Of a stretch of DNA of 58,437 nucleotides, positions 2,720 to 55,884 are shown in pieces (position 1 is the stretch's first letter; each line of letters opens with the position of its first letter). Below the pieces are notes generated by a model. The model ran no database searches and had not been told where the DNA came from. It saw nothing but the letters and a program-made list of their open reading frames with translations. Position numbers and translations under genes: made by a program. The stretch is from an uncultured Coriobacteriales bacterium. GTDB lineage: Bacteria > Actinomycetota > Coriobacteriia > WRKU01 > JAENWW01. Where the stretch lies: NCBI GenBank assembly GCA_937858655.1, contig CALLZE010000155.1, positions 1 to 58,437 on the forward strand. Reading direction: 5' to 3'.

Positions 2720-3603
2720 CGCGCTTTCTTAAAGACTCACCAGAACTTCTCGAAAAGCTCGCCCAAGTTGATATTGTCTACACTGACCTTGACGGTACTC
2801 TGCTTGGTCGCGGCGGCACCCTTCTTATTGACGGCGAGGGGAACCCCGATTTTAATACCGCGGCAACCGTTGTCGCGGCAAATAAAGCCGGTCTGCCCAT
2901 TGTTCCTGTCACGGGACGTTCATGTGCACAACTTACAGAAATTACGCGCATGTGCGGGTGGACCGATTACATCGCGGAAGCTGGCGCAATTCGCTCATAT
3001 TTTGATGGTAAAGAGCGCACCTTCATGTTCGATATCCCTGAGTGGAACTCTGAACTTAAACGTCAGCTCATAACAAAAACGCCTATTGAAATTATTCGCG
3101 AACACGGCGTTGTTGAGAGACTTATGGAAGCATTCCCTGGTTGCATCGAATATCACACGCCGTGGGACGTCCACCGCGACGCTACCGAGGTACTGCGCGG
3201 CTTCCTCAATCGCCAAGCAGCCCTTGAGCTTCTCGACGAGATTGATCTTCCTCTCTCGCTGATTGATAACGGTGTCATCCATCCCCGCCTGCACACACTC
3301 AAAGCAAGCGATGAGCCTATTCGCGCCTATCATCTCACCCCAGCCGGCGTGTCAAAACGCAGGGCTATTGCGCTTGACCTCGAATATCGCGGCATTGATC
3401 CCTCACGCGCCATCATGATTGGCGATGCGCCCAGCGACATGCTCTGTGCCGAAGTGGTGAGCGTCAGCATTCTCGTTGAGAATGCCCTTCGTTCGCCGGG
3501 GATCGATAAGCGCATCGATAACATTGAAAATACTGCCATAGTCGAAGGTTTTGCCGGCGATGGCTGGAGTCGCGTCATTAACGAAGTACTCTCAAATTTT
3601 TAA
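2716..3603 (+). CDS. HAD-superfamily hydrolase (Cof/HAD-IIB-like)
   Basis: Motif I YTDLDGTLLG and C-terminal GDAPSDM motif. ATGA start/stop overlap with the TetR gene. Confidence 0.8.
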   Translation: MTRFLKDSPELLEKLAQVDIVYTDLDGTLLGRGGTLLIDGEGNPDFNTAATVVAANKAGLPIVPVTGRSCAQLTEITRMCGWTDYIAEAGAIRSYFDGKERTFMFDIPEWNSELKRQLITKTPIEIIREHGVVERLMEAFPGCIEYHTPWDVHRDATEVLRGFLNRQAALELLDEIDLPLSLIDNGVIHPRLHTLKASDEPIRAYHLTPAGVSKRRAIALDLEYRGIDPSRAIMIGDAPSDMLCAEVVSVSILVENALRSPGIDKRIDNIENTAIVEGFAGDGWSRVINEVLSNF

Positions 3604-3674
3604 AGCAAATAAACGCAATTCTGTCCGTCTCACTACGCGAAGACTGGCACCTTGCTGCGCATTTTGTGTATACT

Positions 3675-3852
3675 AGACACCTGTGCTGTGCCGATTTTTT
3701 GCTCAGCCGTACCTATAACCGAGAGAAAAGGACTTCTGTGAAACCTCACAGTACCCAGCCTCGGTAGGTGTTCCCTTGTAGCGCATATGCGCATTTGACT
3801 CTGTTATGCGAGGAGCACTCATCGAGGCCACTTAACATAACGGAGGAATCCC
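3675..3852 (+). promoter_or_regulatory. Structured 5' leader (candidate riboswitch/attenuator) of the MgtE-like/NRMT operon
   Basis: There is a TATACT -10-like hexamer at 3669..3674. Hairpin CTGTGA-AACC-TCACAG at 3736..3751. Palindrome GCGCATATGCGC at 3781..3792. Helix GCCTCG (3758..3763) pairs with CGAGGC (3823..3828). A 10-bp helix, CTCTGTTATG (3799..3808) with CATAACGGAG (3836..3845), covers most of the GGAGG SD at 3842..3846. Confidence 0.5.
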
Positions 3853-5751
3853 GTGATTTATCTTTCCCAACTGCTCGGAAAGCCGGTCGTAGATGCCGCT
3901 GACGAGCAAATCGGAACAATTAGCGATATAGCCATCGCAACTGGCGAGGTCTTCCCTCGTGTAACTGCGCTTGCCTTTAAAGGACCCGATAAGACGCCCT
4001 TTATGTTGTCGTGGCGCAAATATGTCAAAGAGTTTGAGGGCGATAAGGTCGAGCTCAACACGTCATCCGACGAGCTGCGCTTTAGTTACTTGCAGTCTGA
4101 TGAGATTTTGCTTTCTCGTGACCTTCTCAACAAACAAATTGTCGACACTCAAGGCATGAAAGTCGTTCGCGTAAACGACCTCAAACTATCCGATTCGAGC
4201 AACACACTTCGTCTGCTTGGAGCAGAAGTCGGTATGCGCGGGCTTTTACGCGCCATCTCCCCTGGCTTTGAAAAAACTGTAGGCCGTTTTCTCTCAATTT
4301 TTAATCAGAGCATTCCTGAAAATCTTATTGCGTGGAACTATATGGACTTGCTTGAGCATGACTTAAGCCAAGTAAAGCTCTCGGTAACACACAAACGTCT
4401 TCATGAGTTACACCCAGCAGACGTCGCAGACATTTTGGAGCAACTCGCGCCAAACCAACGCGCAGCGGTATTTGCCCACCTCGACAACACACAAGCTGCT
4501 GAGACAATTTCAGAACTCGAAGAGGAGTACCAAGCCGACGTCATTGAAGACCTCTCCGAGCGACGCGCTTCTGACTTGCTGGCTGAAATGGATCCTGACG
4601 ATGCTGCCGACGTCATCGGCGACCTTGATTACGGCAAAGCAGAACGCCTCCTGCGCCTTATGGGCGTCGAAGACTCTGATGCCATCCGTAAACTGCTCGG
4701 TTATCGCGAAAAAACCGCGGGCGGTATCATGACTCCTGAAGTCACCACTGGGCGTGAGTCTATGACGGTTGAAGAGACCATCGAGCACATCCGTGATGTG
4801 GCAGAACAACGCGAAAGCATTCATTACGTGTACGTCATTGATTCAGAAAACGAGCTCAAGGGCGTCGTTTCATTACGCCAACTACTTCTTGAACCTGTTG
4901 AGAAGACATTGGGCGAAATCATGGAACGCAATCTTTTTGTGGCCAATCCTGATGATGACCAAGAAGAGGTAGCGGAAACTATCTCGAAATATGACTTGCT
5001 CTCTGTTCCGGTCGTTGATGATAAGCATAAACTCCTTGGTATCGTTACCATCGATGATGCGCTCGACGTTCTCGAGGAAGAAGCGGAAGAAGACCTCGTG
5101 CGGGCAACTGGTCGCAGCGAGCACAAAGAGGGTGCCAACCCCCTCGCATGGCTCATGCCTCGTCGAAGCGGCTGGATTGTCTTGTGGCTGATTGCCCTGT
5201 TTGGCATGTCGCTTGCTTCATCAACACTGAACAGTAAATATATGGCGAGTTCTGCCCAAATGAGTTCAAAAACTTTCGGCATCTTAGTATTGCTTGCTGG
5301 CGCCGCTCAGATTGCCACTCTTGGCGCAACCATTTTGCCGCTCATTCTCATTTCACTTGAAGAAAGCGCGATTCGTGGCATCGAACTGCTCACAGATGCC
5401 AAAAAAGATGAACGCCCCTCGCTCGCCAAGCGCTTCTTATTTGGAGGAGGCGTCGCCTCTGCGAGTGGTTTATTCTCAGGCATTATCGTTCTTGCACTAA
5501 CCGATTTGCTCACAGGCTCAATTGGACTTTCGAGCGCGTACGGGTTGTGCGTTTTTGCAGCAGCACTTGTCAGCGGGCTTTTGCTTACCGCTCTCGTCAA
5601 TATGACAGTGCGTCGCGACGACAAAGGAAAGCCAACTTCACCAGCGGGCATTTCTCTTATCGCCATGCTCGTATGCACACTGATTGTATTAGGCAGCGCT
5701 TTTCTGCTACTCGTTTACGTTCCAGCCTTTTCAGCGAGCATTTTGGGATAA
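3853..5751 (+). CDS. PRC-barrel / MgtE_N / CBS-pair membrane protein (MgtE-related, atypical C-terminal membrane domain)
   Basis: GTG start after GGAGG. PRC-like segments LLGKPVVDAADEQIGTISDIAI and LLNKQIVDTQGMKVVRVNDLKL. MgtE_N-like LHELHPADVADILEQL...DPDDAADVIGDL. CBS pair GGIMTPEV...VPVVDDKHKLLGIVTIDDALDVLEEE. The C-terminal ~190 aa is hydrophobic, but I could not see MgtE pore signatures. Confidence 0.8.
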   Translation: MIYLSQLLGKPVVDAADEQIGTISDIAIATGEVFPRVTALAFKGPDKTPFMLSWRKYVKEFEGDKVELNTSSDELRFSYLQSDEILLSRDLLNKQIVDTQGMKVVRVNDLKLSDSSNTLRLLGAEVGMRGLLRAISPGFEKTVGRFLSIFNQSIPENLIAWNYMDLLEHDLSQVKLSVTHKRLHELHPADVADILEQLAPNQRAAVFAHLDNTQAAETISELEEEYQADVIEDLSERRASDLLAEMDPDDAADVIGDLDYGKAERLLRLMGVEDSDAIRKLLGYREKTAGGIMTPEVTTGRESMTVEETIEHIRDVAEQRESIHYVYVIDSENELKGVVSLRQLLLEPVEKTLGEIMERNLFVANPDDDQEEVAETISKYDLLSVPVVDDKHKLLGIVTIDDALDVLEEEAEEDLVRATGRSEHKEGANPLAWLMPRRSGWIVLWLIALFGMSLASSTLNSKYMASSAQMSSKTFGILVLLAGAAQIATLGATILPLILISLEESAIRGIELLTDAKKDERPSLAKRFLFGGGVASASGLFSGIIVLALTDLLTGSIGLSSAYGLCVFAAALVSGLLLTALVNMTVRRDDKGKPTSPAGISLIAMLVCTLIVLGSAFLLLVYVPAFSASILG

Positions 5752-5760
5752 CACGCACAT

Positions 5761-7047
5761 ATGACACCGCAAAATGACATAGAAACTCAACCAGCTGCAC
5801 AGCGTACGCCATGGTATAAACGTCTTGGCCTCGTAATAACCGCAATGGGCCCCGGCATTATTGCCGCAAGCGCGGGCAACGATGCGGGTGGTATTTCCAC
5901 GTATTCTACAGACGGAGCCACTTTTGGATACAAAACGCTCTGGATGATTTTCCTCATGACGTTTTCGCTCATCGTTGTCCAAGAAATGGCTGCCCGCATG
6001 GGAGCGGTCACTGGCAAGGGCTTCGCGGCGCTCATTCGTGAAAAGTTTGGCGTCAAGTCTACAATTTTTGCGATGACCACGCTTCTCGCCAGCAACGCGG
6101 CAACGAGTGTCGCGGAATTCGCTGGTATTGCTGCCGCATTCGAACTCTTTGGCGTAAGCCGTTATATTTCGGTACCCATTGCCGCGATTACCGTATGGCT
6201 TCTCGTCACTCGCAGTTCTTTTAAATATGTTGAAAAAGTATTTTTGGTGCTTTCAAGTGTCTTTGTGACCTATATCATCGCTGCCTTTATGGCAAAGCCA
6301 AATTGGGGCGAAGTCATTCATGCAACGGTCGTTCCGCAATTTGAACCAAACGTAAATTTTGTTCTACTTGTGGTTGCAACGGTCGGTACAACAATTGCAC
6401 CTTGGATGCAGTTTTTCGTGCAGTCAAACATTGTTGACAAAGGTACGTCAGTAAAAAATCTCTTCTATCAGCGTGTTGATGTTATTACGGGAGCCATAAG
6501 CGCCAATATTGTTGCTTGGTTCATCATCGTCGCAACAGGTGCGACCCTCTATAAAAATGGCATCTTGGTAAGTTCGGCTGAAGCGGCAGCAAAAGCCCTG
6601 ACACCTGTCGCCGGTAAATACGCGACCATCCTCTTTGCGGTTGGTCTCGCGGGCGCGTCTCTTTTGGCTGCCTGCGTATTGCCGCTAACTGCTGCGTATG
6701 CCGTCACGGAAGCATTTGGCTGGGAGCGCGGGCTTGATCATTCATTCAGCGAGGCTCCCGCGTTCAATATCATTTTTACTTTCGTCATTCTGTTTGGAGC
6801 CGCCCTTGTGCTTGTCCCCAAGGCTCCCCTTATTACCATCATGGTTATGTCCCAAGCAATAAATGGAGTCTTGCTCCCTATTTTGATGATTTTCCAGATA
6901 CTAATCATCAACGATAAGCGTATTATGGGAAAGTACACCAACAAAAAGCTCACCAATATTCTTGCTTGGATTACTGCCTTAGTTGTTATCGCGCTTACTA
7001 TTGTTCTTTTGGTAGGAAGTGTTCTGCAAAAAATGGGTATTTTGTAG
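5761..7047 (+). CDS. NRAMP-family transporter with NRMT-type (Mg2+-transporter-like) metal-site substitutions
   Basis: 428 aa, about 11 TM helices. TM1 reads GPGIIAASAGNDAGGISTYS where canonical NRAMPs have DPGN. TM6 reads VGTTIAPWMQFFVQS where canonical NRAMPs have A..MPH. It starts 9 nt after the MgtE-like gene. Confidence 0.8.
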   Translation: MTPQNDIETQPAAQRTPWYKRLGLVITAMGPGIIAASAGNDAGGISTYSTDGATFGYKTLWMIFLMTFSLIVVQEMAARMGAVTGKGFAALIREKFGVKSTIFAMTTLLASNAATSVAEFAGIAAAFELFGVSRYISVPIAAITVWLLVTRSSFKYVEKVFLVLSSVFVTYIIAAFMAKPNWGEVIHATVVPQFEPNVNFVLLVVATVGTTIAPWMQFFVQSNIVDKGTSVKNLFYQRVDVITGAISANIVAWFIIVATGATLYKNGILVSSAEAAAKALTPVAGKYATILFAVGLAGASLLAACVLPLTAAYAVTEAFGWERGLDHSFSEAPAFNIIFTFVILFGAALVLVPKAPLITIMVMSQAINGVLLPILMIFQILIINDKRIMGKYTNKKLTNILAWITALVVIALTIVLLVGSVLQKMGIL

Positions 7048-8870: not shown

Positions 8871-9653
8871 TCACTCTTCATCATCCATCGCGTCTTTTAT
8901 ATCCTGAACAAAGGAGTTGAGCCATTTCTTCGTCTTCTTGCCGGCCTTCGTCTGCGAGGCCTGCTTTAAAGCACGCTCACTATACACGGCCGCTTTTGCC
9001 GCGCCCTTAATTGTTGCTTCACCGATTTTCTTGCCCGCGTCGGCTGCAACCACAGCAGCCTTGCCTGCCTGTTTAGCCGCGCCGCCATCAAGTTCAATGT
9101 CTGCCGCAGAATTCTCGCACATAACACCAAAGGTTTCGGAATTAAAACCTTTGATAAGCGCCCCCGGTATGCTTCGTTTTCCAAGCAAAGCGTCTGAGCC
9201 CGTTCCAGCGGTGACCTGTAAAACTGATACCGCGCCAGTGCTCAAGTCAAACCGAGCGTCACTAACTTTCCCTAGAGGTTCTCCCCCAAGCGTGAAAACA
9301 TTTTGGCCGTAATAGATAACGCTCTCATCCCACGAGAATCCCAAAATCTTTTCTGCGCGAACATTCCACGCAGAGCGAGCAGCCTTTTGCTCTTTTTCTG
9401 TTTGGGGCTCTTTACCCTGAAATGTCACGACAAGTTGGCCATTGTCATTCAGCGAAGTGTTCTCAAAAAGAAGATAGCGCATAGGAAGAGCAATAATGCC
9501 ACCTACTCGGTAGGGCTTTATCGAAAAGCCAACAGCCTTTGGCAGTGTGGGATGAAAAAGTACATCATCAACCGTCCCCACAAGCTCTTGCTTTTGGTTT
9601 AATACTTGGCAACGATAAATTTGCCTCAGCGAAATTGTCACATGCTCTACCAT
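8871..9653 (-). CDS. PRC-barrel domain protein (two PRC-like repeats, Lys/Ala-rich tail)
   Basis: VLNQKQELVGTVDDVLFHP and VFTLGGEPLGKVSDARFDLSTGAVSVLQV resemble PRC barrels. The C-terminus is AKQAGKAAVVAADAGKKIGE..KKTKKW. Confidence 0.55.
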   Translation of the reverse strand: MVEHVTISLRQIYRCQVLNQKQELVGTVDDVLFHPTLPKAVGFSIKPYRVGGIIALPMRYLLFENTSLNDNGQLVVTFQGKEPQTEKEQKAARSAWNVRAEKILGFSWDESVIYYGQNVFTLGGEPLGKVSDARFDLSTGAVSVLQVTAGTGSDALLGKRSIPGALIKGFNSETFGVMCENSAADIELDGGAAKQAGKAAVVAADAGKKIGEATIKGAAKAAVYSERALKQASQTKAGKKTKKWLNSFVQDIKDAMDDEE

Positions 9654-9740: not shown

Positions 9741-10175
9741 TTACTCGGCAGGCACTGAAGTTACAGCTGGCTCGGGAGCAGGAGCCTGCTCTTGTGCGGC
9801 TTCAGCCTGCACTTCGGCTGGCGCAGGACTTGGAGCGGGCGCCTCCTCGACAGGAGTGTTCGCCTTATTTACTGCGTCATACAAGCGCTCACGCGCATCC
9901 TCAATCTTATCGCGCACTGTATCGCTCATTTCTGTTGCGCGCTCACGACCGGTATAGTAAGCCTCTGCGGCCATATCGCGACTTGTGTAATAGGCATCAG
10001 CAGCAATTTCACGACCCGTCTCATAGACATCATCAGCCTGATCCCAATACTCTAATGCTCTATCTGAAAGGAACTCACGTGTCTCGCGACCGGTGCGAGG
10101 TGCAAAGAGGAGCCCTATTCCTGCTCCGATAAGTCCTCCCAAAATAAACGAGCTAATGCCATTTCCTTTTGCCAT
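9741..10175 (-). CDS. YtxH domain-containing protein
   Basis: N-terminal GGLIGAGIGLLFAPRTGRETREFL followed by charged helical repeats and a Pro/Ala-rich tail. Confidence 0.7.
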   Translation of the reverse strand: MAKGNGISSFILGGLIGAGIGLLFAPRTGRETREFLSDRALEYWDQADDVYETGREIAADAYYTSRDMAAEAYYTGRERATEMSDTVRDKIEDARERLYDAVNKANTPVEEAPAPSPAPAEVQAEAAQEQAPAPEPAVTSVPAE

Positions 10176-14376: not shown

Positions 14377-15738
14377 TTATGAATTCTTTTCTTCTTCGGA
14401 AGAGTGACGATTGAAAAGATGACGCTCTTCGCTCGCCTCTTCATCCTTTAATGGCAAAGACAGAGCCTCGATCCTAATGCGCGCAACACGACGACGACGC
14501 ATACCTAGCACGGTGTACACGTAGCCTTCACGACTCACCGACTCCCCAACGTGAGGGATATGCCCCAGCTCATCAAGCATCCAGCCTGCTATGGTGTCAT
14601 ACTCATCAGACTCCTCAAGAGGAAATCCCATCTCGATGGCGTCTTCAACAGGCAAGGTGCCGTTTACTACCCACTCTGATGAACTAACCTTATTGACCGC
14701 AATCTTATCACGATCAAATTCATCCGCAATTTCGCCCACAACTTCTTCGACAATGTCTTCGAGCGTAACGAGACCAGCCGTTCCGCCGTATTCATCCACA
14801 ACGATAGCCATTTGGTTACGCGAAGTTTGCATATCGTTAAGCATCGGCAAAATGCCTTTTGTCTCAGGTACGAACACGGGAGTTCGCATATATGCCGCAA
14901 CAGGCTTGTCTCCATGACCCTCATCAAGAGGTACAAACAAATCCTTGAACATGATAATTCCTACCACGCGATCGTGATCGTCATGGTACACCGGCACACG
15001 TGAGTATCCTCTTTTGAGCATTGTACGCGTAGCCTCAGACACAGAGAGTGTATCTTCGATAAATGTCATATCGACACGAGGAACCATAATCTCACGCACG
15101 ACCGTATCGCCAAGGCTAAAAATCTCATTAATCATGCGCTTTTCTTCATCGAGAAGCGAGCCTTGTTCGGTCACAAGCAGTTTAATCTCCTCTTCGGTCG
15201 CCTCGTCATCTTGTTCATCTTTAATGCCAAGCAATTTGGACACCAAATCAGTCGAGCGCGTAAGCAACCACACAACGGGAGCGGCGATTGTTGCCAAAAA
15301 TGAAACGGGCCGCGCGACCGAAGCGGCAACTGCATCGGCTTTCTGGAGACCAAGGCGCTTGGGAACAAGCTCGCCGAGCACTAAAGAAAAATAGCTGATA
15401 ATGAGCGTTACGACGAAAACCGAAAGCCCAGGAGCAATCGACGAAAGTGTTTGCATCCCAAGGGATTCAAGCCATTTTTGAAGAGGCGCGGCAAGCGAAA
15501 CCGCAGCTGTCGCTGACGCGAGCATTCCCATAAGTGTAATGGCTACCTGAATGGTCGCGAGCAGGCGCGTGGGGTCCTCGGTCATTCGCAGAGCGGTCTG
15601 CGCGCCTTTTGAGCCCTCATCTGCTCTCTGCATAAGGGCGGACTTGCGCGCGCTGATGAGCGCGATTTCGGCAGCAGCAAAATACCCGTTTACAAGAATG
15701 AGTACGAGTACGAAAAATATTTCTGAAGCATTATTCAT
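14377..15738 (-). CDS. CNNM/HlyC/CorC-family transporter (DUF21 + CBS pair + CorC_HlyC)
   Basis: DUF21 N-terminus LVNGYFAAAEIALISARKS, a CBS pair (VREIMVPRVDM...), and a C-terminal transporter-associated domain (VNGTLPVEDAIEMGFPLEE..YDTIAGW). It abuts the UPF0182 start codon. Confidence 0.85.
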   Translation of the reverse strand: MNNASEIFFVLVLILVNGYFAAAEIALISARKSALMQRADEGSKGAQTALRMTEDPTRLLATIQVAITLMGMLASATAAVSLAAPLQKWLESLGMQTLSSIAPGLSVFVVTLIISYFSLVLGELVPKRLGLQKADAVAASVARPVSFLATIAAPVVWLLTRSTDLVSKLLGIKDEQDDEATEEEIKLLVTEQGSLLDEEKRMINEIFSLGDTVVREIMVPRVDMTFIEDTLSVSEATRTMLKRGYSRVPVYHDDHDRVVGIIMFKDLFVPLDEGHGDKPVAAYMRTPVFVPETKGILPMLNDMQTSRNQMAIVVDEYGGTAGLVTLEDIVEEVVGEIADEFDRDKIAVNKVSSSEWVVNGTLPVEDAIEMGFPLEESDEYDTIAGWMLDELGHIPHVGESVSREGYVYTVLGMRRRRVARIRIEALSLPLKDEEASEERHLFNRHSSEEEKNS

Positions 15739-28791: not shown

Positions 28792-29538
28792 CTAAGCGTT
28801 TGGAATAATAACTACGTGGCGATTGTCGCCTGATCCTTCACTTGAGCTTGTAACGCCCTGTACTTCGCGTATGGCAATATGAACCATGCGACGCTCCTGG
28901 GGAGACATAGGGCGAAGTGAGACGGGACGCCCACTTCTCTCTGCGCGCTCAACGGCCTTCATCGCAATCTCGATTACTTTTTGCTTCCTGCGATGGCGAT
29001 ATCCTTCAACATCAACAACAATAGGGAAGCGAACCCCCATACGTTTCGTAACGATTGCTGAAGTGACCGTCTGAAGAGCTTCGATAGTTCTCCCATGACG
29101 CCCAATCAAAAAGGCCAAGTCATCTCCTACAATATCAAGAATAACCTCACCTTCATCGCCCTCATACTCTTCAATCTCAATATTTTTAGCTCCACAATAC
29201 TCAGCGATAATCTTTACTGTGGCAATAGCCTCATCGGCGATTGTATCAATCTGCTCATCTGTAAGATCAGCTTCTTCAAGACTATTAAAGTTTTCCTGGG
29301 ACGGCTCGTTCGTGTCTGCAATGATTTCATCAACAATAGTTGAAGCTGTCTCTGACACATTGGTTGTCTCGAAAACCCTTACCTTTGCAGGTTTCGCATT
29401 CCCAAAGCCAAAATGCTTCTTTGCTGGCTCCTCTATAACCTCAAAATCTACTTCTTCGCGAGAAAGGCCTAATTGATTAATCCCCTCTGCAAGTGCCTCT
29501 TCGACAGAAGCGGCTTCAGCAATAATTTCCTTTGGCAT
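28792..29538 (-). CDS. khpB: Jag/KhpB RNA-binding protein (Jag_N, KH, R3H)
   Basis: Its position after yidC is typical. The R3H region is PMSPQERRMVHIAI and the KH-like region is IGRHGRTIEALQ. Confidence 0.88.
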   Translation of the reverse strand: MPKEIIAEAASVEEALAEGINQLGLSREEVDFEVIEEPAKKHFGFGNAKPAKVRVFETTNVSETASTIVDEIIADTNEPSQENFNSLEEADLTDEQIDTIADEAIATVKIIAEYCGAKNIEIEEYEGDEGEVILDIVGDDLAFLIGRHGRTIEALQTVTSAIVTKRMGVRFPIVVDVEGYRHRRKQKVIEIAMKAVERAERSGRPVSLRPMSPQERRMVHIAIREVQGVTSSSEGSGDNRHVVIIPNA

Positions 29539-29550
29539 AGCTCTCTCCTT

Positions 29551-30360
29551 TTATTTCTTCTTCTTTGATGATTTCTTTTTTGGGGATTGCTCATCAGCTT
29601 CTTCGATGGCTTCCTCAACCAGTTCTTCGTTAGCACCAAGAGCTCGCTTGACTGCATTTTGAGTAAGCTGCTGCTGGCCAATACCAAGGATAGAAGAAAT
29701 ATCCCAATAGAGAAGAACACCAGCAGGGGCGCTCCATCCAACAAAGAGCATAAACACAGCCATATACAAGCCGATCATCTTTTGGCTTTTCTCGCCAGGC
29801 ATCATTGCCTGAGGAAGCCAAATTGAAAGGCCAAATATAATAACGAGAATGACATAAGGAATGAGCTCTAAATAATTGCCTGTCTTAAAGACTGCTGCAG
29901 GCGAGTGAGAGATATCTGGAATTATTCCAAAGAATGAACCCGTGCTGTTATGGAGTGACAAATACGCGCTTAGGTTGATCTTGGCAAGCGCTGTTTCACT
30001 CATTGCTTTTGCGGTTTTTGCACTTACGGGACCGAGAACCTGATACAATGCCATAAAAATTGGCATCTGTAGAATCATTGGCAAACAAGATGAAAAGGGA
30101 TTAACCTTGTGCTCAGAATAGAATTTCATGAGTTCTTCTTGCTGCTTCTCTTTATCGTCAGCATATTTATCTTGAATCTTTTTTATCTCTGGAGTAACTT
30201 TTTGCAACTCATAGGTTGCTTTAACTTGCTTCGCCGTAAGCGGCCAAAGCAACATTCTAATTAGAACAGTCAAAACAATGATGGCCATTCCCCAGTCGCC
30301 AACATAGCTTTGAATCCATAAGAGAATTTGAAAAATTCCCTCTCTAAAGGCATTCCACAC
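29551..30360 (-). CDS. yidC: Membrane protein insertase YidC
   Basis: LIRMLLWPLTAKQ, NPFSSCLPMILQMPIFMALY and a basic C-terminal tail KKKSSKKKK. Confidence 0.92.
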   Translation of the reverse strand: MWNAFREGIFQILLWIQSYVGDWGMAIIVLTVLIRMLLWPLTAKQVKATYELQKVTPEIKKIQDKYADDKEKQQEELMKFYSEHKVNPFSSCLPMILQMPIFMALYQVLGPVSAKTAKAMSETALAKINLSAYLSLHNSTGSFFGIIPDISHSPAAVFKTGNYLELIPYVILVIIFGLSIWLPQAMMPGEKSQKMIGLYMAVFMLFVGWSAPAGVLLYWDISSILGIGQQQLTQNAVKRALGANEELVEEAIEEADEQSPKKKSSKKKK

Positions 30361-30381
30361 AGCTTGCTCCTTATAACACGG

Positions 30382-30642
30382 CTAAGGCACAGGATCATAC
30401 CCGCCAGGGTTCCATGGATTACATCTTAATATTCGCCATATTGCGAGTAATCCACCTTTAAATAAACCATAACGCTGCAAAGCTGTAATCGCATATGCGG
30501 AACAGCTTGGTGCAAATCTGCAGGTGGAAGGGAAGAGGGGAGAGATGACCTGCTGATATCCCCGTATCAATAAGACGCACAAGCGTCGAGGTAACGTAAT
30601 TATAAACGCCATAACCTGATTTGTATTTAATTTCTTATACAT
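30382..30642 (-). CDS. yidD: Membrane protein insertion efficiency factor YidD
   Basis: [27 protein letters not shown]...RILRCNPW. The start is uncertain (30642 or 30612). Confidence 0.85.
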
Positions 30643-30965
30643 TTTGTGAGTAATCTCACAATCTCTTTAGAAACTTCTAGTGAACCGGCCTCTTGTGTAG
30701 ACTTCTTTGCCATCAAAATTATGTCGTACCCAGAGTAGTCAACATATGAGGTTCTTAAAGCTGCGCGCAACACACGCTTAGATCTATTTCGCCACACGGC
30801 GTTTCCGAGTCTTTTTGCCGCAATAAAAGCAACGCGACCACTGGGGTCGCGATGCTCAGGTGTCTCACGAATAAACAGTGTTAACAAAGGGCTGTGTAAC
30901 TTTTTACCCTTTTTTAATACGTCACTAATCTCTTCAGAAGACTTTATTATGTTTTTAGCACTCAT
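30627..30965 (-). CDS. rnpA: Ribonuclease P protein component
   Basis: Basic 112-aa protein with [23 protein letters not shown] (RNR motif). It lies between rpmH and yidD. Confidence 0.9.
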
Positions 30966-30988
30966 AATAAGCGCTCAGACCGATCACA

Positions 30989-31126
30989 CTAAGCGCAAAG
31001 GCTGCTACGGCCCTTACGACGACGAGCGGCTAAAACAGCACGCCCACCACGAGTTGCCATACGTGCTCGGAAGCCGTGGGTCTTTGCACGCTTCCTGTTA
31101 TTTGGCTGATAAGTTCTCTTGCTCAC
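30989..31126 (-). CDS. rpmH: 50S ribosomal protein L34 (not in the ORF track, 45 aa)
   Basis: Hand translation from the GTG at 31126 gives (M)[44 protein letters not shown], ending at the TAG at 30989..30991. There is an AAGGAGG RBS at 31132..31138 (complement). Confidence 0.93.
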
Positions 31127-31327
31127 AATTCCTCCTTAAAATGTGTCTACAAAACGCATGCAGACGCAAGGTAAAAATTATAAACAAGCCCGATACCAAA
31201 GTCAACAGGATAAATTGGTAGGATAAGTTATTCATTTATCCCAACAAATAATTATTAGGCAATACGAAATATCTTAAAACCGCAGGTCAGAGTATAAATT
31301 TTAAGAAATACAAATTACTTAAAAATC

Positions 31328-31345
31328 TGTGGATAATGTGGATAA
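31328..31345 (-). promoter_or_regulatory. Two abutting perfect DnaA boxes (TGTGGATAATGTGGATAA)
   Basis: 31328..31336 and 31337..31345 are each the exact complement of TTATCCACA. Confidence 0.85.
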
Positions 31346-31381
31346 GTTTTTGATTCAACAGGTTTTAAACGTAAATAATAC

Positions 31382-31390
31382 TGTGGATAA
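31382..31390 (-). promoter_or_regulatory. Perfect DnaA box (TGTGGATAA)
   Basis: Exact 9-mer, in the same orientation as the others. Confidence 0.8.
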
Positions 31391-31668
31391 CTCACTCTAG
31401 AAAGAATCATGCAACAAATATTATTGTTATGATATTTCACCCATGCAGTTACTCAAAACTCATTTCACACCCAGACTGCAACAAATCATAACTTTGAAAA
31501 CAAAATAAGAGCCCAGGAGAAGTAATGATATGAGCTTCTTTTTCTCTTTCTCTTTGTTTGATCATATACGTAGGAAAATTATAGGAAACACGACACACCA
31601 TAATTTACCTGCAAACTTGAGGGTTTGAAATAAAGAATAAATCATGTTTCCCACAGTTTTCACCGTCC

Positions 31669-31677
31669 TGTGGATAA
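31669..31677 (-). promoter_or_regulatory. Perfect DnaA box (TGTGGATAA)
   Basis: Exact 9-mer. It lies 14 bp from the oppositely oriented near-box TTTCCCACA. Confidence 0.8.
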
Positions 31678-31813
31678 CTTAGAAACATACAGGTAAAAGA
31701 ATACGAACCTATGTTCGTTTTTGGAAAAGTGCAGGTCAGAGCAATAGAAATGAAATATTTTGATTGTGTTTGAAATTTGAGTTTAGGCGAATAGCATAAG
31801 ATTTTTTTAGGAA

Positions 31814-32704
31814 TTGTGGAAAGACTTAATGAATGCTCCTTACGAAATAAATTCTCTCCAAGCTGAGCCGCTACCAAGTCAATCCGCCTCATTGTTGTCT
31901 TTCCCAAAGGGCAACACACACAATTCACCCCAATCAGAAAATCGTACAACTACTATTGCTGTATTTTCTTCCTCTGAAATATCTTCCTTACAAACTGTAC
32001 CTTTTCAAAATGATATTACAGCTCTCAATAAATCTATTTGTTCTAATATATATAAGATCTTTTCAGACCTAAAATCACCTTTTCCACAGGCTGTGATTAA
32101 AGAGTTGGTAGAAAACTTCATCCATGCGGATTATCTTTTCCCATCAATCATTATTTCTGATGAAGGTTATACGGTAATCTTTTCAGATCATGGTCCAGGA
32201 ATTATTGAACCCCATAAGGCTCTTAGACAAGGATTTTCAGCGATAACACCTTTTAAGAAAAAATATATTCGTGGTATGGGTCTTGGCTTTCCGTTGATAA
32301 AATCTCTTTTAGGACAATACCACGGAACAATCTCTATTGAGGATAATATCGACTCAGGTTGTGTAATAACTTTAAAAATTCCTAAGCCGCTCATTAATTC
32401 TCACGAAATTACAAAAAAACAAACCAATAATGAAGAGAAAAACAACGATAATAGTATTTCCTGTAATCATTATTTATCTCATCGTCAGCGAGAGGTATTA
32501 ATGGTTGTTGCTGATAATAAAGGGGCTGGGCCAAGTGCGGTTTCAAAAATGCTTGGTACAGCGCTTTCAACTGCCTACAGAGATTTAATTTATCTCGAGG
32601 AATGCAACTTTATTTATTCAAGCTCAGGTAAACGATTATTAACATCTGAAGGAATTTCATATTTAACGCGATTTAAGAAAGGGGACAAACTTGATAGAAA
32701 CTAA
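31814..32704 (+). CDS. GHKL (histidine-kinase-like) ATPase domain fused to a C-terminal winged-HTH; function unknown
   Basis: The 296-codon ORF is open in very AT-rich DNA. N-box AVIKELVENFIHA, G1 SDHGPGI, G2 IRGMGLGFPL, then LSHRQREVLMVVADNKGAGPSAVSKMLGTALSTAYRDLIYLEE. The start is TTG 31814 or ATG 31829. The stop overlaps the dnaA TTG start by 14 nt. Confidence 0.6.
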   Translation: MWKDLMNAPYEINSLQAEPLPSQSASLLSFPKGNTHNSPQSENRTTTIAVFSSSEISSLQTVPFQNDITALNKSICSNIYKIFSDLKSPFPQAVIKELVENFIHADYLFPSIIISDEGYTVIFSDHGPGIIEPHKALRQGFSAITPFKKKYIRGMGLGFPLIKSLLGQYHGTISIEDNIDSGCVITLKIPKPLINSHEITKKQTNNEEKNNDNSISCNHYLSHRQREVLMVVADNKGAGPSAVSKMLGTALSTAYRDLIYLEECNFIYSSSGKRLLTSEGISYLTRFKKGDKLDRN

Positions 32705-34082
32705 TCTCGACAAAGATGAATTTTGGGCTAATGTCTTAAATTCTCTTGAAAGTCAGACGAAATCACCACAATTCAATAGTCGATATGGGCGAATCATACC
32801 TGTATCACTTACAGATTCAACTATCACCCTTGCGGCACCAAATCACTTTTCAAGAGATTGGTTTTTAAAAGGTATTGAGATTGTTCAAAATACAATAGAT
32901 AACATAGCGGGTCATGCACTCGATATTGAAGTTGTTGTTGACGAGAATATCATCAGCAACCAAATTGAAACAAAAGTTCCTACGGTTAGCCAGATTATTA
33001 ATGAGGATATCAAAAAAGAGGAAATCATTCCGCGCGGTACCCTTGATGATAAATATACCTTTGATACTTTTATCTCAGGAGACTCAAATAACTTTGCGCG
33101 TAGTATTGCCATGAATGTTGCGGAACATCCGGGTCAAAAATACAATCCGCTTTTTATTTCCGGAGGTCCGGGGCTCGGAAAAACACATCTCCTCCAAGCG
33201 ATTGGAAACTATATTTCTGAAGTCTACCCGAATAAAAAAGTTGTCTACGCTACTGCGGAAGAATTCTTCAATGAATTTATTAATGCCTTAAGTAAAGACA
33301 ATTCAAATTCATCAATAAAAAACATGGGAGCTTTTCACCAGATTTATCGAGAAGCTGATGTTTTATTAATGGATGACATTCAATTCCTTGAAAAGAAGGA
33401 TCAGGGAATTAAGCAATTTTTCCATACATTTGAAGCTCTCTATAGTAAGAAAGCACAGATTGTCGTTGCTTCAGATAGGGCTGCCGCAGAAATTAATATG
33501 GATGAGCGCATGATTACCCGTTTTCAAATGGGAGTCGAGGCTGACGTTCTACCTCCAAGCTATGAATTACGTTATGCAATTATTAAGACTCTCTTTAATA
33601 AACAACCTATTCCTGTTGATAAGAAAGTATACGAATACCTTGCTGATAAAAGTGTAAGAAGTGTACGTGAGATTGAAGGGGCAGTTAATATTATTATTGC
33701 CTTCACTGAACTCAGTAGACTTAATTACATCGATCTTGAGGTTACCCAAAAAACAACCTCAGGGCTTTTTAAAAATCAAACAAATAAGATTATTAAAGTT
33801 GCAACCATTCAATCAGAGGTATGCAAATACTTCGGAATCAACAAAAATGATCTTCTTGGTAGCAAAAGAACACAGTCTATAGTGTTCCCACGTCATATCG
33901 CTATGTATTTAACACAAGAGTTAACTGATTACTCGTACCCTCGCATAGGTAAAGATTTTGGGGATAGAGATCACACAACCGTAATGCATGCTGTCGACAA
34001 AATTAAAAAAATGATTAAAGCAGACCCGCAAGTTTTTCAACAGGTTGAAATATTAACCGAACAAATTAAACGCCAGCAGTGA
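32691..34082 (+). CDS. dnaA: Chromosomal replication initiator protein DnaA
   Basis: TTG start with AAAGGGGA upstream. Walker A GGPGLGKTHLLQAIG, Walker B LLMDDIQFL, and DNA-binding HTH KRTQSIVFPRHIAMYLTQELT..SYPRIGKDFGDRDHTTVMHA. Confidence 0.95.
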   Translation: MIETNLDKDEFWANVLNSLESQTKSPQFNSRYGRIIPVSLTDSTITLAAPNHFSRDWFLKGIEIVQNTIDNIAGHALDIEVVVDENIISNQIETKVPTVSQIINEDIKKEEIIPRGTLDDKYTFDTFISGDSNNFARSIAMNVAEHPGQKYNPLFISGGPGLGKTHLLQAIGNYISEVYPNKKVVYATAEEFFNEFINALSKDNSNSSIKNMGAFHQIYREADVLLMDDIQFLEKKDQGIKQFFHTFEALYSKKAQIVVASDRAAAEINMDERMITRFQMGVEADVLPPSYELRYAIIKTLFNKQPIPVDKKVYEYLADKSVRSVREIEGAVNIIIAFTELSRLNYIDLEVTQKTTSGLFKNQTNKIIKVATIQSEVCKYFGINKNDLLGSKRTQSIVFPRHIAMYLTQELTDYSYPRIGKDFGDRDHTTVMHAVDKIKKMIKADPQVFQQVEILTEQIKRQQ

Positions 34083-34418
34083 TTTTTAAACCCTTAAGTT
34101 GCTTGCTTGAGGGTTAATTTTTCTTGAGTTTTGGGTTACGGGTACTAAACACTATTGAATTAAGAGGTTGATTATTAATTCAAGAATGAATAACTTAGGG
34201 ATAACTTGTAAAATACTCAGGAAAAAATGTGTGTAAGTAAGTAGTTTTAAAATTATGGACATTTTAAGTGGGAAAGCGTTGATAATTTAAGGGAGTCATA
34301 AACAGTTTTTTCCTAAGGGGGACACACCTGTTTATCTGCGGAAATACAAGTTTTACAAAGTTTCCACACCCCTTATTATTAGTATTATTGTTTTTTCATA
34401 ATTTATTAAGGAATAATA
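34083..34418. other. Candidate oriC part 2 / unwinding region (dnaA-dnaN spacer)
   Basis: 336-bp AT-rich spacer with degenerate DnaA boxes (TAGGGATAA, TTATGGACA, CGTTGATAA, GTTTCCACA) and an AT-rich run just before dnaN. Confidence 0.6.
34360..34390 (+). promoter_or_regulatory. DnaA-box-like GTTTCCACA + CCCC + six nTA/nTG triplets (DnaA-trio-like unwinding element)
   Basis: 34360..34368 is GTTTCCACA. 34369..34372 is CCCC. 34373..34390 is TTA TTA TTA GTA TTA TTG. Confidence 0.45.
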
Positions 34419-35519
34419 ATGAAAATTACCATCTCAAAATCTGAACTTGTTACTGCCCTCGATACCGTTATCAAAGCAACAGCATCTCGAGCAACAGTTC
34501 CTTCACTAGCAGGAATTTTAATTTCTACTGAACAAGATAAGATTTCTTTTTTCGCGACCGACCTTGAAACCTCAATTAAAACGTCAGTTTCTGGTCTTAT
34601 CGATGAAAGTGGAGTATTGGCTGTACCTGGAAAGATTTTTACCAATATTATTAAAAGTCTTCCTGAAGCAGCAGTAATTATTGAGACACAAGGTGATATT
34701 GCTCGTATTTCATGTAATCAATCACATTTCACCGTTAATACACTTAATGCAGCGGACTTTACACGCTTTCCTGATATTTCTGGAATTGAGTCAATTAAAC
34801 TTCCCTCGAATATTCTCGATGAAATGGTAAAGAAAGTTGCTAAAGCGGTAAGCAATGATGAAACTCGAGCAATTCTTACTGGCATCCTCCTTACTGTTGA
34901 TAAAGAAATTGTAAAAATGGTTGCTACTGATAGCTATCGTTTAGCGCTCGTTGAAAAATTCCTTGATGAACCACTTGTTGATAGTTTTGAAGTTTTAATT
35001 CCTGGAAAAGCTTTCGAAGAAGTTGTAAAGATGAATACAGGAACCAAAGAAATAAATATTGTGCTCACCTCAAACCAAATTCTCTTTACTTTTGGAGATA
35101 CCTCTTTTGTAACACGCCGCCTAGATGGAAATTTCCCCAACTACAATCAATTAATTCCAAAAGAGTGGAAAGCAAAAACTACCATTAGTCTTTCTGAATT
35201 AAGTGAGTCTGTGAAACGTGTTTCTTTAATGGCTCTCAATAATACGGCCATAAAAATTGTTTGCTCTGTGGAAGATCAACAAATCTCACTTTCTTCCAAA
35301 GCCCAAGATGTTGGTAATGCTGAAGAGAAAGTTCTCGCAAAAATTGAAGGGGAGACCCAAGAAATTTCTTTTAATTACAATTTTGTTCAGGATGGACTTT
35401 CGGTAATAAAAAATGAATTTGTTTCTTTAGAGATACAAGATGGCATGAAACCAGGATTGATTCGTTGTCCTGAAGAAGGATTTACTTATCTTATGATGCC
35501 TGTTCGTTCAAATCATTAA
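34419..35519 (+). CDS. dnaN: DNA polymerase III beta sliding clamp
   Basis: 366 aa with typical three-domain clamp sequence (MKITISKSEL...ATDSYRLA...MMPVR). Confidence 0.95.
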   Translation: MKITISKSELVTALDTVIKATASRATVPSLAGILISTEQDKISFFATDLETSIKTSVSGLIDESGVLAVPGKIFTNIIKSLPEAAVIIETQGDIARISCNQSHFTVNTLNAADFTRFPDISGIESIKLPSNILDEMVKKVAKAVSNDETRAILTGILLTVDKEIVKMVATDSYRLALVEKFLDEPLVDSFEVLIPGKAFEEVVKMNTGTKEINIVLTSNQILFTFGDTSFVTRRLDGNFPNYNQLIPKEWKAKTTISLSELSESVKRVSLMALNNTAIKIVCSVEDQQISLSSKAQDVGNAEEKVLAKIEGETQEISFNYNFVQDGLSVIKNEFVSLEIQDGMKPGLIRCPEEGFTYLMMPVRSNH

Positions 35520-35520
35520 C

Positions 35521-36657
35521 GTGACATTTAGAATTGAAAAAATAAAACTTCATAACTTCCGTTCATATAAAGACGTGTTGATTGAACTTGATTCACATCT
35601 GACAATTTTGTATGGCCCTAATGCAATCGGGAAAACTAACTTTATTGAAGCTCTTCAATTAGTGACCGAAGGCACATCGTTTAGAAATCCCTCGTGGGCT
35701 GATGTGGTAAATAAGGAAGATGACTCAACTTCTGCGCGAATTGTAATGTCAGCAAGTGATGAGCAGCGTGTGCGAGATGTCATTTTTGAAGTAAAAAGTA
35801 ACACTCGAACTCTAGTAGTGAATGATAAAAGAGTGCGGAGCCTCTCGGTATTTATGGGAGTAATACCGAGTGTGCTGTTTACTCCTGATGATCTTTTAAT
35901 TGTTTCTGGTTCATCGGAGGCAAGGAGAGTTGAGCTGGATAGTCTCGGTTCGAAATTATCAAAAAAATATTTTCAGCTTAAGCAAGAATATAAAAAAATT
36001 GTCGCCCAAAGAAACAAGCTCTTTAAAGATGAGGAAATAAATTTTCTTTTACTTGAAGTGCTGAATGAGCAACTCATTGAATATGGATCAGCTTTAATTT
36101 TTCAGCGAATTAAGCTGTTAAAGAGAATTAATTTGGAGATACAAGAAGCCTATTCTCAGATTAATAATCGGGAAAGTTTGAATATTTTATATTTTTCAAA
36201 TATTTTTTCTCAATCTCAAGAGGGTTTAAACATTGATGATGAAATATTTCAAACATCACTTATAGAAATTAAAGAACTATTTAAGAAGAAACTTGAACAA
36301 CGCAAGAACGATGAGTTTATTCGTCGCATATCTCTTGTTGGGCCTCATCGTGATGACATAATTTTTAATTTGGATAATTCAAACGCGCGGACCTTTGCTT
36401 CCCAAGGACAAAAGCGGTCCATTACTCTTGCGTGGAAAATGGCCGAGGTTAAGGTTATTGAAAAAATATCGGGGAGCAAACCCCTGTTGCTCTTAGATGA
36501 TGTGATGAGTGAGCTAGACGGTGAGCGTCGAAACTCACTTACTCATTTAGTGAGCGAGGTTGCCCAAACGGTAATTACAACAGCCAATATTGGATATTTC
36601 ACGCAGGATTTACTCGATCAAGCAAAAGTTATTAATGTAGAGGAGTTGATTTCATAA
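35521..36657 (+). CDS. recF: DNA replication/repair protein RecF
   Basis: GTG start. Walker A GPNAIGKTNFIEAL, signature ASQGQKRSITLAWK, Walker B LLLLDDVMSELD. Confidence 0.93.
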   Translation: MTFRIEKIKLHNFRSYKDVLIELDSHLTILYGPNAIGKTNFIEALQLVTEGTSFRNPSWADVVNKEDDSTSARIVMSASDEQRVRDVIFEVKSNTRTLVVNDKRVRSLSVFMGVIPSVLFTPDDLLIVSGSSEARRVELDSLGSKLSKKYFQLKQEYKKIVAQRNKLFKDEEINFLLLEVLNEQLIEYGSALIFQRIKLLKRINLEIQEAYSQINNRESLNILYFSNIFSQSQEGLNIDDEIFQTSLIEIKELFKKKLEQRKNDEFIRRISLVGPHRDDIIFNLDNSNARTFASQGQKRSITLAWKMAEVKVIEKISGSKPLLLLDDVMSELDGERRNSLTHLVSEVAQTVITTANIGYFTQDLLDQAKVINVEELIS

Positions 36658-37007
36658 TGGATGAATTTTTAAGTGACAATCGTTACGATAAAATGACTGA
36701 AATTACTCCCATACAAAAAGCGCTCGACAGTTTTCTGCATGAAATCGATCCTACGGGGGAGCACACGCAGGTCCAAACATCCCTCAATCGTGCGTGGGCA
36801 GATATTACAGGACCAAGCACAGTCGAGCATACTATTTCGCTGTTTCGTAGAGGCAAAATGATTATTGTGTGGGTCGATAATGCAGCGTGGGCAAATAATA
36901 TTCGAATGCTTGAATCGATGTATGTAGAAAAATTAAAAGAGGCGCTTAATGATTCCTCAATTTCTACGGTGCGCGTTGAGGTAAAAAGAAGAAAAAAATT
37001 GAGCTAA
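36657..37007 (+). CDS. dciA: DUF721 / DciA-family protein
   Basis: 116 aa in the actinobacterial recF-DUF721-gyrB position. LNRAWADITGPSTVEHTISLFRRGKMIIVWVDNAAWANNIRM matches the DUF721 pattern. Confidence 0.8.
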   Translation: MDEFLSDNRYDKMTEITPIQKALDSFLHEIDPTGEHTQVQTSLNRAWADITGPSTVEHTISLFRRGKMIIVWVDNAAWANNIRMLESMYVEKLKEALNDSSISTVRVEVKRRKKLS

Positions 37008-37142
37008 ATCTCAATGTGAGCGAAATTGGGCACTACTTTTAAGGAAAACTATAAGTTTTCATATAAATTCTTTTAAAACACGCTGAGATTTGATTACATG
37101 GCTTAATTAGCCAATAAAATATCTATTTATGGTAAAATTAAA

Positions 37143-37165
37143 TACGGTTTTATAACCGTTTTTTA
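37143..37165 (+). terminator. Rho-independent terminator after dciA
   Basis: ACGGTT-TTAT-AACCGT followed by TTTTT. Confidence 0.6.
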
Positions 37166-37207
37166 GTATCTTTTGCTCATTTGTCGTGTCTGAGGGCTGG
37201 CATATAG

Positions 37208-39166
<1,959 letters not shown>

Positions 39167-39176
39167 GGAGTAAAAC

Positions 39177-55809: not shown

Positions 55810-55884
<75 letters not shown>

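Follow-up and report, generated by a model that had tools for sequence, protein, structure and literature searches.

The DNA analyzed here, called the window throughout, is the whole 58,437-nucleotide (nt) stretch of contig CALLZE010000155.1 (assembly GCA_937858655.1) from an uncultured Coriobacteriales bacterium. Near its beginning, at 3853..5751 on the forward strand, lies a real open reading frame (ORF) with a GTG start and 632 codons for amino acids (aa), whose product combines PRC barrels with the regulatory domains of the Mg2+ channel MgtE; it is followed by a gene for an NRMT-type NRAMP transporter. Among bacterial Mg2+ importers, NRMTs make up the fourth class. The 632-aa protein is referred to below as the partner protein, and its relation to the NRMT is the subject of this report.

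Architecture of the partner protein and its NRMT neighbor

The partner protein is built, from the N- to the C-terminus, of two tandem PRC barrels, an MgtE_N helical domain, a CBS pair, a connector and a membrane domain (Table 1). In Pfam searches PRC (PF05239, 44.8 bits) and CBS (PF00571, 73.9 bits) each match two stretches and MgtE_N (PF03448) scores 96.7 bits, as in members of the MgtE family; no nucleic-acid-binding domain was detected in the same scan of the protein, and the MgtE membrane domain (PF01769) finds no match even at E<=1. The acidic motif DPDDAADVIGDLD is present in the protein. These regulatory modules, the acidic stretch of MgtE_N and the two N-terminal PRC-like repeats had all been named in a first-pass annotation made from the sequence alone, and hold up; its hydrophobic C-terminus of ~190 aa with 5-6 helices corresponds to 193 aa that are modeled as five long helices. 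The NCBIfam model TIGR00400 (mgtE) reaches 228.5 bits, just below its cut-off of 232.75, and its alignment spans only model positions 15-307 of 450, that is the cytosolic part and the start of the first transmembrane (TM) helix, without extending over a full-length MgtE.

The AlphaFold2 model of residues 1-178 consists of two beta barrels, with a predicted local distance difference test (pLDDT) score of 92.1. Foldseek places the tandem PRC barrels of CdpB1/CdpB2 (8QZO) at the top of its matches to this model, followed by the reaction-center H subunit, RimM and single PRC proteins, all with probability 1.0.

Table 1. Coordinates of the features of the window
Feature	Position	Strand	Evidence or remark
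Conserved leader motif, 71 nt, candidate cis-regulatory element	3708..3778	+	covariance model R1, 75.2 bits
Shine-Dalgarno-like GGAGG	3842..3846	+	6 nt 5' of GTG; read from sequence; kept in close relatives
Two tandem PRC barrels, residues 1-80 and 81-165	3853..4347	+	Pfam, AlphaFold2, Foldseek
MgtE_N helical domain, residues 186-286	4408..4710	+	Pfam; alignment to 2YVX
CBS pair, residues 287-415	4711..5097	+	Pfam; alignment to 2YVX
Connector, equivalent of the MgtE plug helix, residues 416-439	5098..5169	+	poorly conserved
Vestigial five-helix MgtE membrane domain, residues 440-632	5170..5748	+	AlphaFold2, Foldseek, hhalign
NRMT-type NRAMP transporter	5761..7047	+	PF01566; 9 nt 3' of partner gene
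PRC-barrel protein, 260 aa, Lys/Ala-rich tail	8871-9653	-	adjoins YtxH-like protein
YtxH-like protein	9741-10175	-	
UPF0182 family membrane protein, 946 aa	11536-14376	-	947 bits
CNNM/CorC-type protein	14377..15738		
Replication origin region	~29500-39200		
yidC	29551-30360	-	origin region
dnaA	32691-34082		origin region
dnaN	34419-35519		origin region
recF	35521-36657		origin region
gyrB	37250-39166		origin region
tRNA gene	55810-55881	+	sole Rfam gathering-threshold match in the window

The cytosolic part of the protein aligns with that of Thermus thermophilus MgtE (2YVX) with 165 bits. When the residue assignments of the regulatory Mg2+ sites (Maruyama et al. 2018, PMC5882242) are transferred through this alignment, the ligands of sites Mg2 to Mg7 all fall on acidic residues (Table 2), most of them invariant or nearly so among 44 homologs; in MgtE_N, D249 and D253 are invariant and E217 is the majority residue. 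The acidic residues of the CBS pair are D369, E371, D381, D402, D405, E410, E413 and D414. By residue conservation, the cytosolic Mg2+ sensor is complete, with all six sites from Mg2 to Mg7.

Table 2. Ligands of the regulatory Mg2+ sites of MgtE and the aligned residues of the partner protein
Site	T. thermophilus MgtE	Partner protein
Mg2	E258	E413
Mg3	D259	D414
Mg4	D91 / D247	D249 / D402
Mg5	D226 / D250	D381 / D405
Mg6	D95	D253
Mg7	E59	E217

The stop codon of the partner gene ends at 5751 and the next gene starts at 5761 on the same strand, which leaves the spacer of 9 nt seen at first pass; the two genes are presumably co-transcribed. The downstream product is an Nramp protein (PF01566, 315 bits) and belongs to the NRMT clade, with 490 bits to EleNRMT (PDB 7QIA). 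It displays both signatures that define NRMTs, DxxG in TM1 and TxxA/T in TM6 replacing DPGN and AxxM (PMC8806188), here in the form GNDAGG and TTIAPW.

Origin of the membrane domain and shift of selective constraint

The membrane domain had been described at first pass as non-MgtE, which is right as far as the missing PF01769 match and the loss of the pore residues are concerned; it is nevertheless a diverged MgtE membrane domain. Indeed, PF01769 is matched by 18 of 33 homologous C-terminal domains scanned alone (best E 1.7e-7), and several full-length homologs with ~60% identity to the partner protein match nearly the whole model with 25-32.5 bits. AlphaFold2 models residues 440-632 with a pLDDT of 95.7 and a predicted TM-score (pTM) of 0.89; in a Foldseek search of the PDB with this model, ranks 1, 2 and 4 are occupied by the T. 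thermophilus MgtE membrane domain (4U9L/4U9N), with probability 0.98-0.99 and TM-score 0.46-0.51, colinear over the full length. Moreover, when PRC-bearing relatives are drawn from a library of representatives at 50% identity, their PF01769 scores grade down from 115, 104 and 100 bits (P0218, P0260 and P0163) through seven intermediates descending from 78 to 45 bits, to at most 32 bits in Coriobacteriia and no match in the partner protein. At the upper end of this series the TM5 Asp is kept in all three proteins, and the TM2 motif is complete in P0218 (GGNTGIQ) and reads AGNAGLQ and SGNTGLQ in the other two.

A profile of the C-terminal domain compared with PDB sequences gave no MgtE match, only chance hydrophobic matches, and hhalign against the single sequence of T. 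thermophilus MgtE (identical to PDB 8H5E/2YVX) returned the expected register with a probability of only 3.6%. The matter was resolved by a bridging profile, in which T. thermophilus MgtE is combined with the membrane domains of PRC-bearing MgtEs (PRC-MgtEs): the profile of the partner-protein clade aligns to it with 95.9% probability (E 5e-9) over 133 columns, from TM2 to TM5. For the partner protein, the homology thus becomes visible only between profiles and at the level of the fold. In this register MgtE P321 corresponds to P496 and S423 to S596, the pore motif G327-G-N-T-G-N-Q333 to L502-E-E-S-A-I-R508, so that GGNxGxQ is gone, and the Mg2+-coordinating D432 of TM5 (site Mg1) to M605. M605, E503 and R508 are nearly invariant across the clade.

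Because of the PF01769 matches in relatives, the predicted fold with its Foldseek matches, the graded scores, the profile alignment and the residue register, the C-terminal domain is a decayed, vestigial MgtE membrane domain that lacks the pore signature. An unrelated pore, which had been considered at first pass, is ruled out by these same lines of evidence (PF01769 in 18/33 domains, 4U9L/4U9N, the graded series and the 95.9% profile match). The judgment that the protein is no ordinary MgtE was sound: an ordinary, if extended, MgtE is ruled out by the silence of PF01769 and the loss of the pore residues, together with the rapid evolution of the membrane domain described below.

Mean identities by region were compared between the 44 homologs, which are NRMT-linked Coriobacteriia proteins, and a control of 49 pore-intact PRC-MgtEs of similar overall divergence (Table 3). 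Within the NRMT-linked clade no part is less conserved or evolves faster than the membrane domain, and the pattern is reversed in the pore-intact control. These identities indicate that in the NRMT-linked clade the constraint has moved from the pore and the gating connector onto the PRC barrels.

Table 3. Mean identity by region, to the partner protein (Coriobacteriia, 44 homologs) and to P0163 (control, 49 pore-intact PRC-MgtEs)
Region	Coriobacteriia	Control
PRC1	0.75	0.43
PRC2	0.73	0.54
Linker	0.88	
MgtE_N	0.80	0.70
CBS pair	0.64	0.65
Connector (plug-helix equivalent)	0.37	0.75
Membrane domain	0.28	0.62

Gene pairing, family forms and the leader region

The proximity to an NRMT gene, on which the first-pass annotation built its hypothesis, is very strongly conserved. 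An NRMT gene follows directly downstream on the same strand in 77 of the 80 best genome loci, the three exceptions being at or near a contig edge (77/77 loci that could be assessed), and on 6/6 contigs of close homologs. Short forms of ~420 aa from Bacillota, Nitrospirota, Chloroflexota and Bacteroidota have an Nramp gene next to them in 4/4 cases; in an independent metagenome sample the NRMT gene is immediately downstream of 60 of 64 assessable short forms, while among the remaining four it lies on the opposite strand in one and is absent in three. The adjacency, often with overlapping genes or a spacing of few nt, held across at least five phyla. It extends to Eggerthella sinensis, where an NRMT 96% identical to EleNRMT is encoded directly behind a one-helix form of the partner.

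Long forms with a better-kept membrane domain have no NRMT neighbor (0/5); the set consists of the pore-intact P0423, P0404 and L148, and L110 and L119, in which the pore Asp is lost (PF01769 37-39 bits). Of two look-alikes, L099 (PF01769 26.5 bits) has an NRMT neighbor and L111 (27.5 bits) has none. The trend is in keeping with two alternative roles for the sensor, gating of its own pore or pairing with an NRMT, with few pore-intact loci available and exceptions present. A strict rule, by which an intact pore goes without NRMT and a dead pore with it, was discarded as only roughly true, since L110, L119 and L111 break it.

The membrane part of the family is highly variable. Among the 80 genome loci, the Eggerthellaceae proteins (genera including Eggerthella, Gordonibacter, Raoultibacter, Paraeggerthella and Ellagibacter) are 445-460 aa long and have one C-terminal hydrophobic helix instead of five. 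The 150 best representatives all begin with PRC barrels; 86 of them, of ~390-470 aa, have no membrane helix, and no other form is as frequent as this soluble one in the wider family, while 10 have one helix, 36 have several and 18 are fragments or frameshifted products. Beyond Coriobacteriia the membrane domain is absent in most phyla. Since Eggerthellaceae make do with one helix and 86/150 representatives with none, the membrane domain is dispensable in the family. At least 596 species genomes encode a relative with the PRC-barrel motifs used in the scan.

The pore-intact PRC-MgtEs of Nitrospirota form a separate family (L091 4001-5824 and L092 4001-5884), where the genes next in line encode an IF-2B-family protein and a polyprenyl synthase, not Nramp. 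The cytosolic part of pore-intact PRC-MgtEs shares up to 71% identity with soluble relatives of ~420 aa, which suggests that the latter lost the membrane domain recently. In the databases, homologs are named 'magnesium transporter', 'Mg2+ transporter MgtE' or 'MgtE integral membrane protein', membrane-less forms included; for pore-dead and membrane-less forms these names are probably wrong, a case of over-annotation. Two loci from metagenome-assembled genomes carry aberrant partner ORFs, one of 802 aa that runs into the NRMT gene (L008, 6001-8409) and one of 531 aa with an out-of-frame Arg/Ser-rich tail (L026, 6001-7596); both probably reflect a frameshift in the assembly or a pseudogene.

Upstream of the partner gene, two types of leader element have to be distinguished. 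The conserved motif of Table 1 has the core GTGAAACCTCACAGT within a hairpin closed by GGnCC/GGnCC, with the general pattern AAGGnCC...GUGAAACCUCACAGU...GGnCCU, and is invariant in four close relatives. With its covariance model R1, 58 copies were detected in 86 sources, every one on the coding strand and just 5' of the partner gene; in L001-L086 the element is located 30-330 nt upstream of the homologous gene, 3' of the M-box terminator where an M-box is present, and it also occurs in Eggerthellaceae, which have no M-box. It has no Rfam match. Single leader sequences mostly fold as the GGnCC/GGnCC hairpin with the apical GUGAAACCUCACAGU conserved; RNAalifold on the MAFFT alignment returned no structure, pair counting in fixed register was no better than in shuffles, and a cross-duplex test gave weak support. 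As an alternative to an RNA hairpin, a DNA operator is just as conceivable, formed by the inverted repeat TGTGA-N4-TCACA. The motif is a candidate new cis-regulatory element of the operon.

The second type is the M-box (RF00380). None was found in the window at the Rfam gathering threshold, on 3500-3950 even at E<=10, or by nhmmer --max with an M-box profile from relatives. An M-box precedes the partner gene in 26 of the 80 loci, all among L001-L028 and L073, the closest genome relatives, at ~200-570 nt from the gene (e.g., L020 5551-5724); it is missing from 3604-3852 of the window and from the nearest relatives L082-L086, in all of which the intergenic region is only ~250 nt long.

The first-pass annotation had also pointed to a second PRC-barrel protein and to a CNNM/CorC gene nearby. 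Both are as described; a functional link of either to the gene pair was considered and discarded, because the occurrence is a matter of local synteny only. The PRC-barrel protein accompanies the operon in 23/80 loci and the YtxH-like protein in 13/80, all of environmental Coriobacteriia, and a CNNM gene is found within 6 kb in 7/80 loci only. Elsewhere, the window contains the replication origin region, where G+C falls to 0.35-0.39 and the sign of the GC skew flips near 33 kb, in addition to the UPF0182 family and tRNA genes (Table 1).

A proposed Mg2+-dependent regulator of NRMT and its relation to known systems

The pairing of these genes has a precedent. Shin et al. (2014, PLoS Genet, PMC4072509) described that most nrmT genes adjoin a gene for an MgtE-like cytoplasmic domain, often under M-box control, and speculated on cytoplasmic feedback regulation of NrmT or on chaperone activity. 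The arrangement, of which the first-pass annotation had seen no description, was therefore published together with the regulator idea. In contrast, neither the PRC barrels nor a vestigial membrane domain is described in any paper found by literature searches that combined PRC barrels or NRMT with MgtE; in Shin et al. the passages containing 'transmembrane' are silent on the ancillary protein (the paper was not searched for PRC barrels), and no accessory subunit appears in the passages of Ramanadane et al. (2022, PMC8806188) that deal with MgtE, operon, neighbor or accessory. Thus, the core of the regulator hypothesis is a rediscovery, while what is new, as far as checked, is the presence of PRC barrels, a pore domain that survives as a vestige or anchor, and an origin in PRC-MgtEs.

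We propose that the gene encodes a membrane-tethered, pore-dead descendant of PRC-MgtEs that acts as a cytosolic Mg2+ sensor and regulator of the downstream NRMT, a proposal to which we assign a probability of roughly 0.55. A regulatory subunit is the best reading because the protein is not an ordinary MgtE, its pore is lost, its linkage to NRMT is conserved and the residues of the Mg2+ sites are intact. This part of the first-pass hypothesis, a Mg2+-sensing subunit instead of a channel, is retained; an obligate two-component Mg2+ uptake system is not, since NRMT transports alone both in complementation (Shin et al. 2014) and in proteoliposomes (Ramanadane et al. 2022).

How such regulation might operate can be outlined tentatively. 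In its boldest form, which we rate as somewhat less likely than not, a former channel would have become a trans-acting sensor that docks through its PRC barrels and gates the unrelated LeuT-fold NRMT, its anchoring decaying from five helices to one and to none. NRMT is taken to be proton-uncoupled and to have no sensor of its own, so its influx would need limiting once cytosolic Mg2+ suffices; unregulated, it would let the membrane potential go on driving Mg2+/Mn2+ into the cell. As in MgtE, the dimeric MgtE_N/CBS module would become more compact when it binds Mg2+, and the compaction would be passed to NRMT instead of closing the protein's own pore. The PRC barrels, the best docking candidates because they are highly constrained specifically in the NRMT-linked clade, would probably dock on the cytoplasmic face of NRMT. 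An analogy is offered by the reaction-center H subunit, one of the structural matches of the barrels, which is attached to its membrane partners from the cytoplasmic side. The only task left to the vestigial membrane domain, or to the single helix, would be to keep the sensor anchored beside NRMT. Uptake would then be inhibited at high Mg2+ and freed of the inhibition at low Mg2+; in many relatives the M-box may add transcriptional Mg2+ control, and the operon of the window would be left with the protein sensor and the second leader element.

Several points weigh against the proposed regulator. NRMT works without the partner, both in vivo and in proteoliposomes (PMC4072509, PMC8806188), and co-expression of the Acidobacterium capsulatum pair is reported to have given no further rescue of a Mg2+-transport-deficient Bacillus subtilis (PMC4072509); the latter result is limited, because the assay tests a gain of uptake and not inhibition, and a brake of this kind would escape rescue-of-uptake assays. 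The linkage is not absolute, as L111, L147, L164 and L171 have no downstream NRMT, and the contrast between pore-intact and NRMT-linked members is based on few pore-intact loci. The role of the PRC barrels is proposed from analogy alone, and the partner may have a positive or chaperone role. Finally, site Mg1 (Asp432), which is needed for, or contributes to, the global Mg2+-induced transition of MgtE (PMC5882242), is gone from the partner protein, so that the sensor may act differently.

Three other explanations have to be weighed against the regulator. One is that the protein still conducts cations, as an extended, functional MgtE whose pore is a variant and which operates in parallel to NRMT and does not regulate it; this appears very improbable. 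In its favor, the predicted fold, five-helix and MgtE-like, has high confidence, the evidence supports a membrane domain homologous to that of MgtE, a few membrane residues (W441, W445, P496, L499, E503, R508, G535 and M605) are nearly invariant, and the database name is 'magnesium transporter'; however, PF01769 is undetectable in the protein, GGNxGxQ and Asp432 (site Mg1) are lost, the membrane domain evolves fastest at 28% identity, the reverse of pore-intact relatives, and sister lineages keep the NRMT linkage with one helix or none. The sensor might instead respond to Mg2+ or nucleotides and act on another target, such as its own leader element or a different membrane partner, NRMT merely sharing the regulon. 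Nucleotide binding is indeed frequent in CBS-domain proteins, the leader motif accompanies the operon across Coriobacteriia with 58 matches, all just upstream, and a few family members have no adjacent NRMT. We nevertheless hold this explanation to be quite unlikely: a tight adjacency kept in at least five phyla is what one would rather expect of interacting subunits, the leader motif is confined to Coriobacteriia among the loci searched while the gene pair is pan-bacterial, and Pfam detects no nucleic-acid-binding domain.

A positive or constitutive accessory of NRMT, involved in folding, stability, localization, metal chaperoning or Mg2+/Mn2+ selectivity and not a Mg2+-gated brake, is equally compatible with operon linkage, and PRC barrels serve protein interactions in general. 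A metal-chaperone role was also considered by Shin et al., and in their work A. capsulatum NrmT seems Mn2+-preferring despite its partner. Against such an accessory, NRMT folds and transports without the partner, strict conservation of six regulatory Mg2+ sites is hard to explain without ligand-dependent switching, and M-box co-regulation links the pair to Mg2+ status; this explanation is rated unlikely, and the Mg2+-dependent regulator remains the preferred one.

The regulator, if real, would fill an evident place. EleNRMT alone moves Mg2+ and Mn2+ with no proton coupling (Ramanadane et al. 2022, PMC8806188), and NrmT complements Mg2+ uptake without its partner (Shin et al. 2014, PMC4072509); for such an uncoupled, sensorless transporter the partner gene is the obvious candidate for limiting influx. 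Structural and functional work on NRMTs left the partner out, although an EleNRMT-like protein (96%) follows a one-helix partner, and all NRMTs studied so far, EleNRMT included, would have been characterized without their physiological regulatory subunit. What is added here, namely tandem PRC barrels universal in the partner family, descent from PRC-MgtE channels and, in Coriobacteriia, a vestigial pore domain, provides concrete constructs and mutants for testing regulation in trans.

The ancillary protein of Shin et al. (2014) resembles the partner protein in its homology to the cytosolic part of MgtE and in its position, immediately upstream of nrmT and co-oriented with it; the ~420-aa relatives from Bacillota, Nitrospirota, Chloroflexota and Bacteroidota fit the description of an 'MgtE-like fragment'. 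It is, differently from the 632-aa protein with PRC barrels and five helices, small and made of the cytoplasmic domain only, and its operons are often controlled by an M-box, which the operon of the window lacks.

T. thermophilus MgtE (2YVX, 2ZY9, 4U9L) arranges MgtE_N, CBS pair, connector and five-helix membrane domain in the same order, and has the same ligands at Mg2-Mg7 and a membrane domain that is homologous and similar in fold. Conversely, the partner protein has ~170 additional N-terminal residues, forming the two PRC barrels; its GGNxGxQ is replaced by LEESAIR and its Asp432 by Met605, PF01769 is undetectable, the membrane domain is the least conserved part of its family, and it is paired with NRMT. 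Closer are the Nitrospirota PRC-MgtEs (P0163, P0423, P0404), of ~600 aa and ~38% identity, which share the whole order of two PRC barrels, MgtE_N, two CBS domains and five TM helices. These proteins keep the TM5 Asp and a TM2 motif of the type GN[AT]GxQ and score 100-115 bits with PF01769; the two contexts examined have no Nramp neighbor, and it is the membrane domain and the connector that are well conserved, the PRC barrels being the least conserved.

The downstream gene, in turn, encodes a close ortholog of EleNRMT and CabNRMT, as judged from its 490 bits and its DxxG/TxxA motifs. In CNNM/CorC, ClC and OpuA, a membrane transport domain is under the control of a CBS pair that responds to cytosolic ligands, the CBS module being usually fused to the transporter or contained in an ATPase subunit. 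Differently from these systems, the partner protein described here, once a channel and now with a dead pore, would regulate in trans a transporter of an unrelated fold, the LeuT type.

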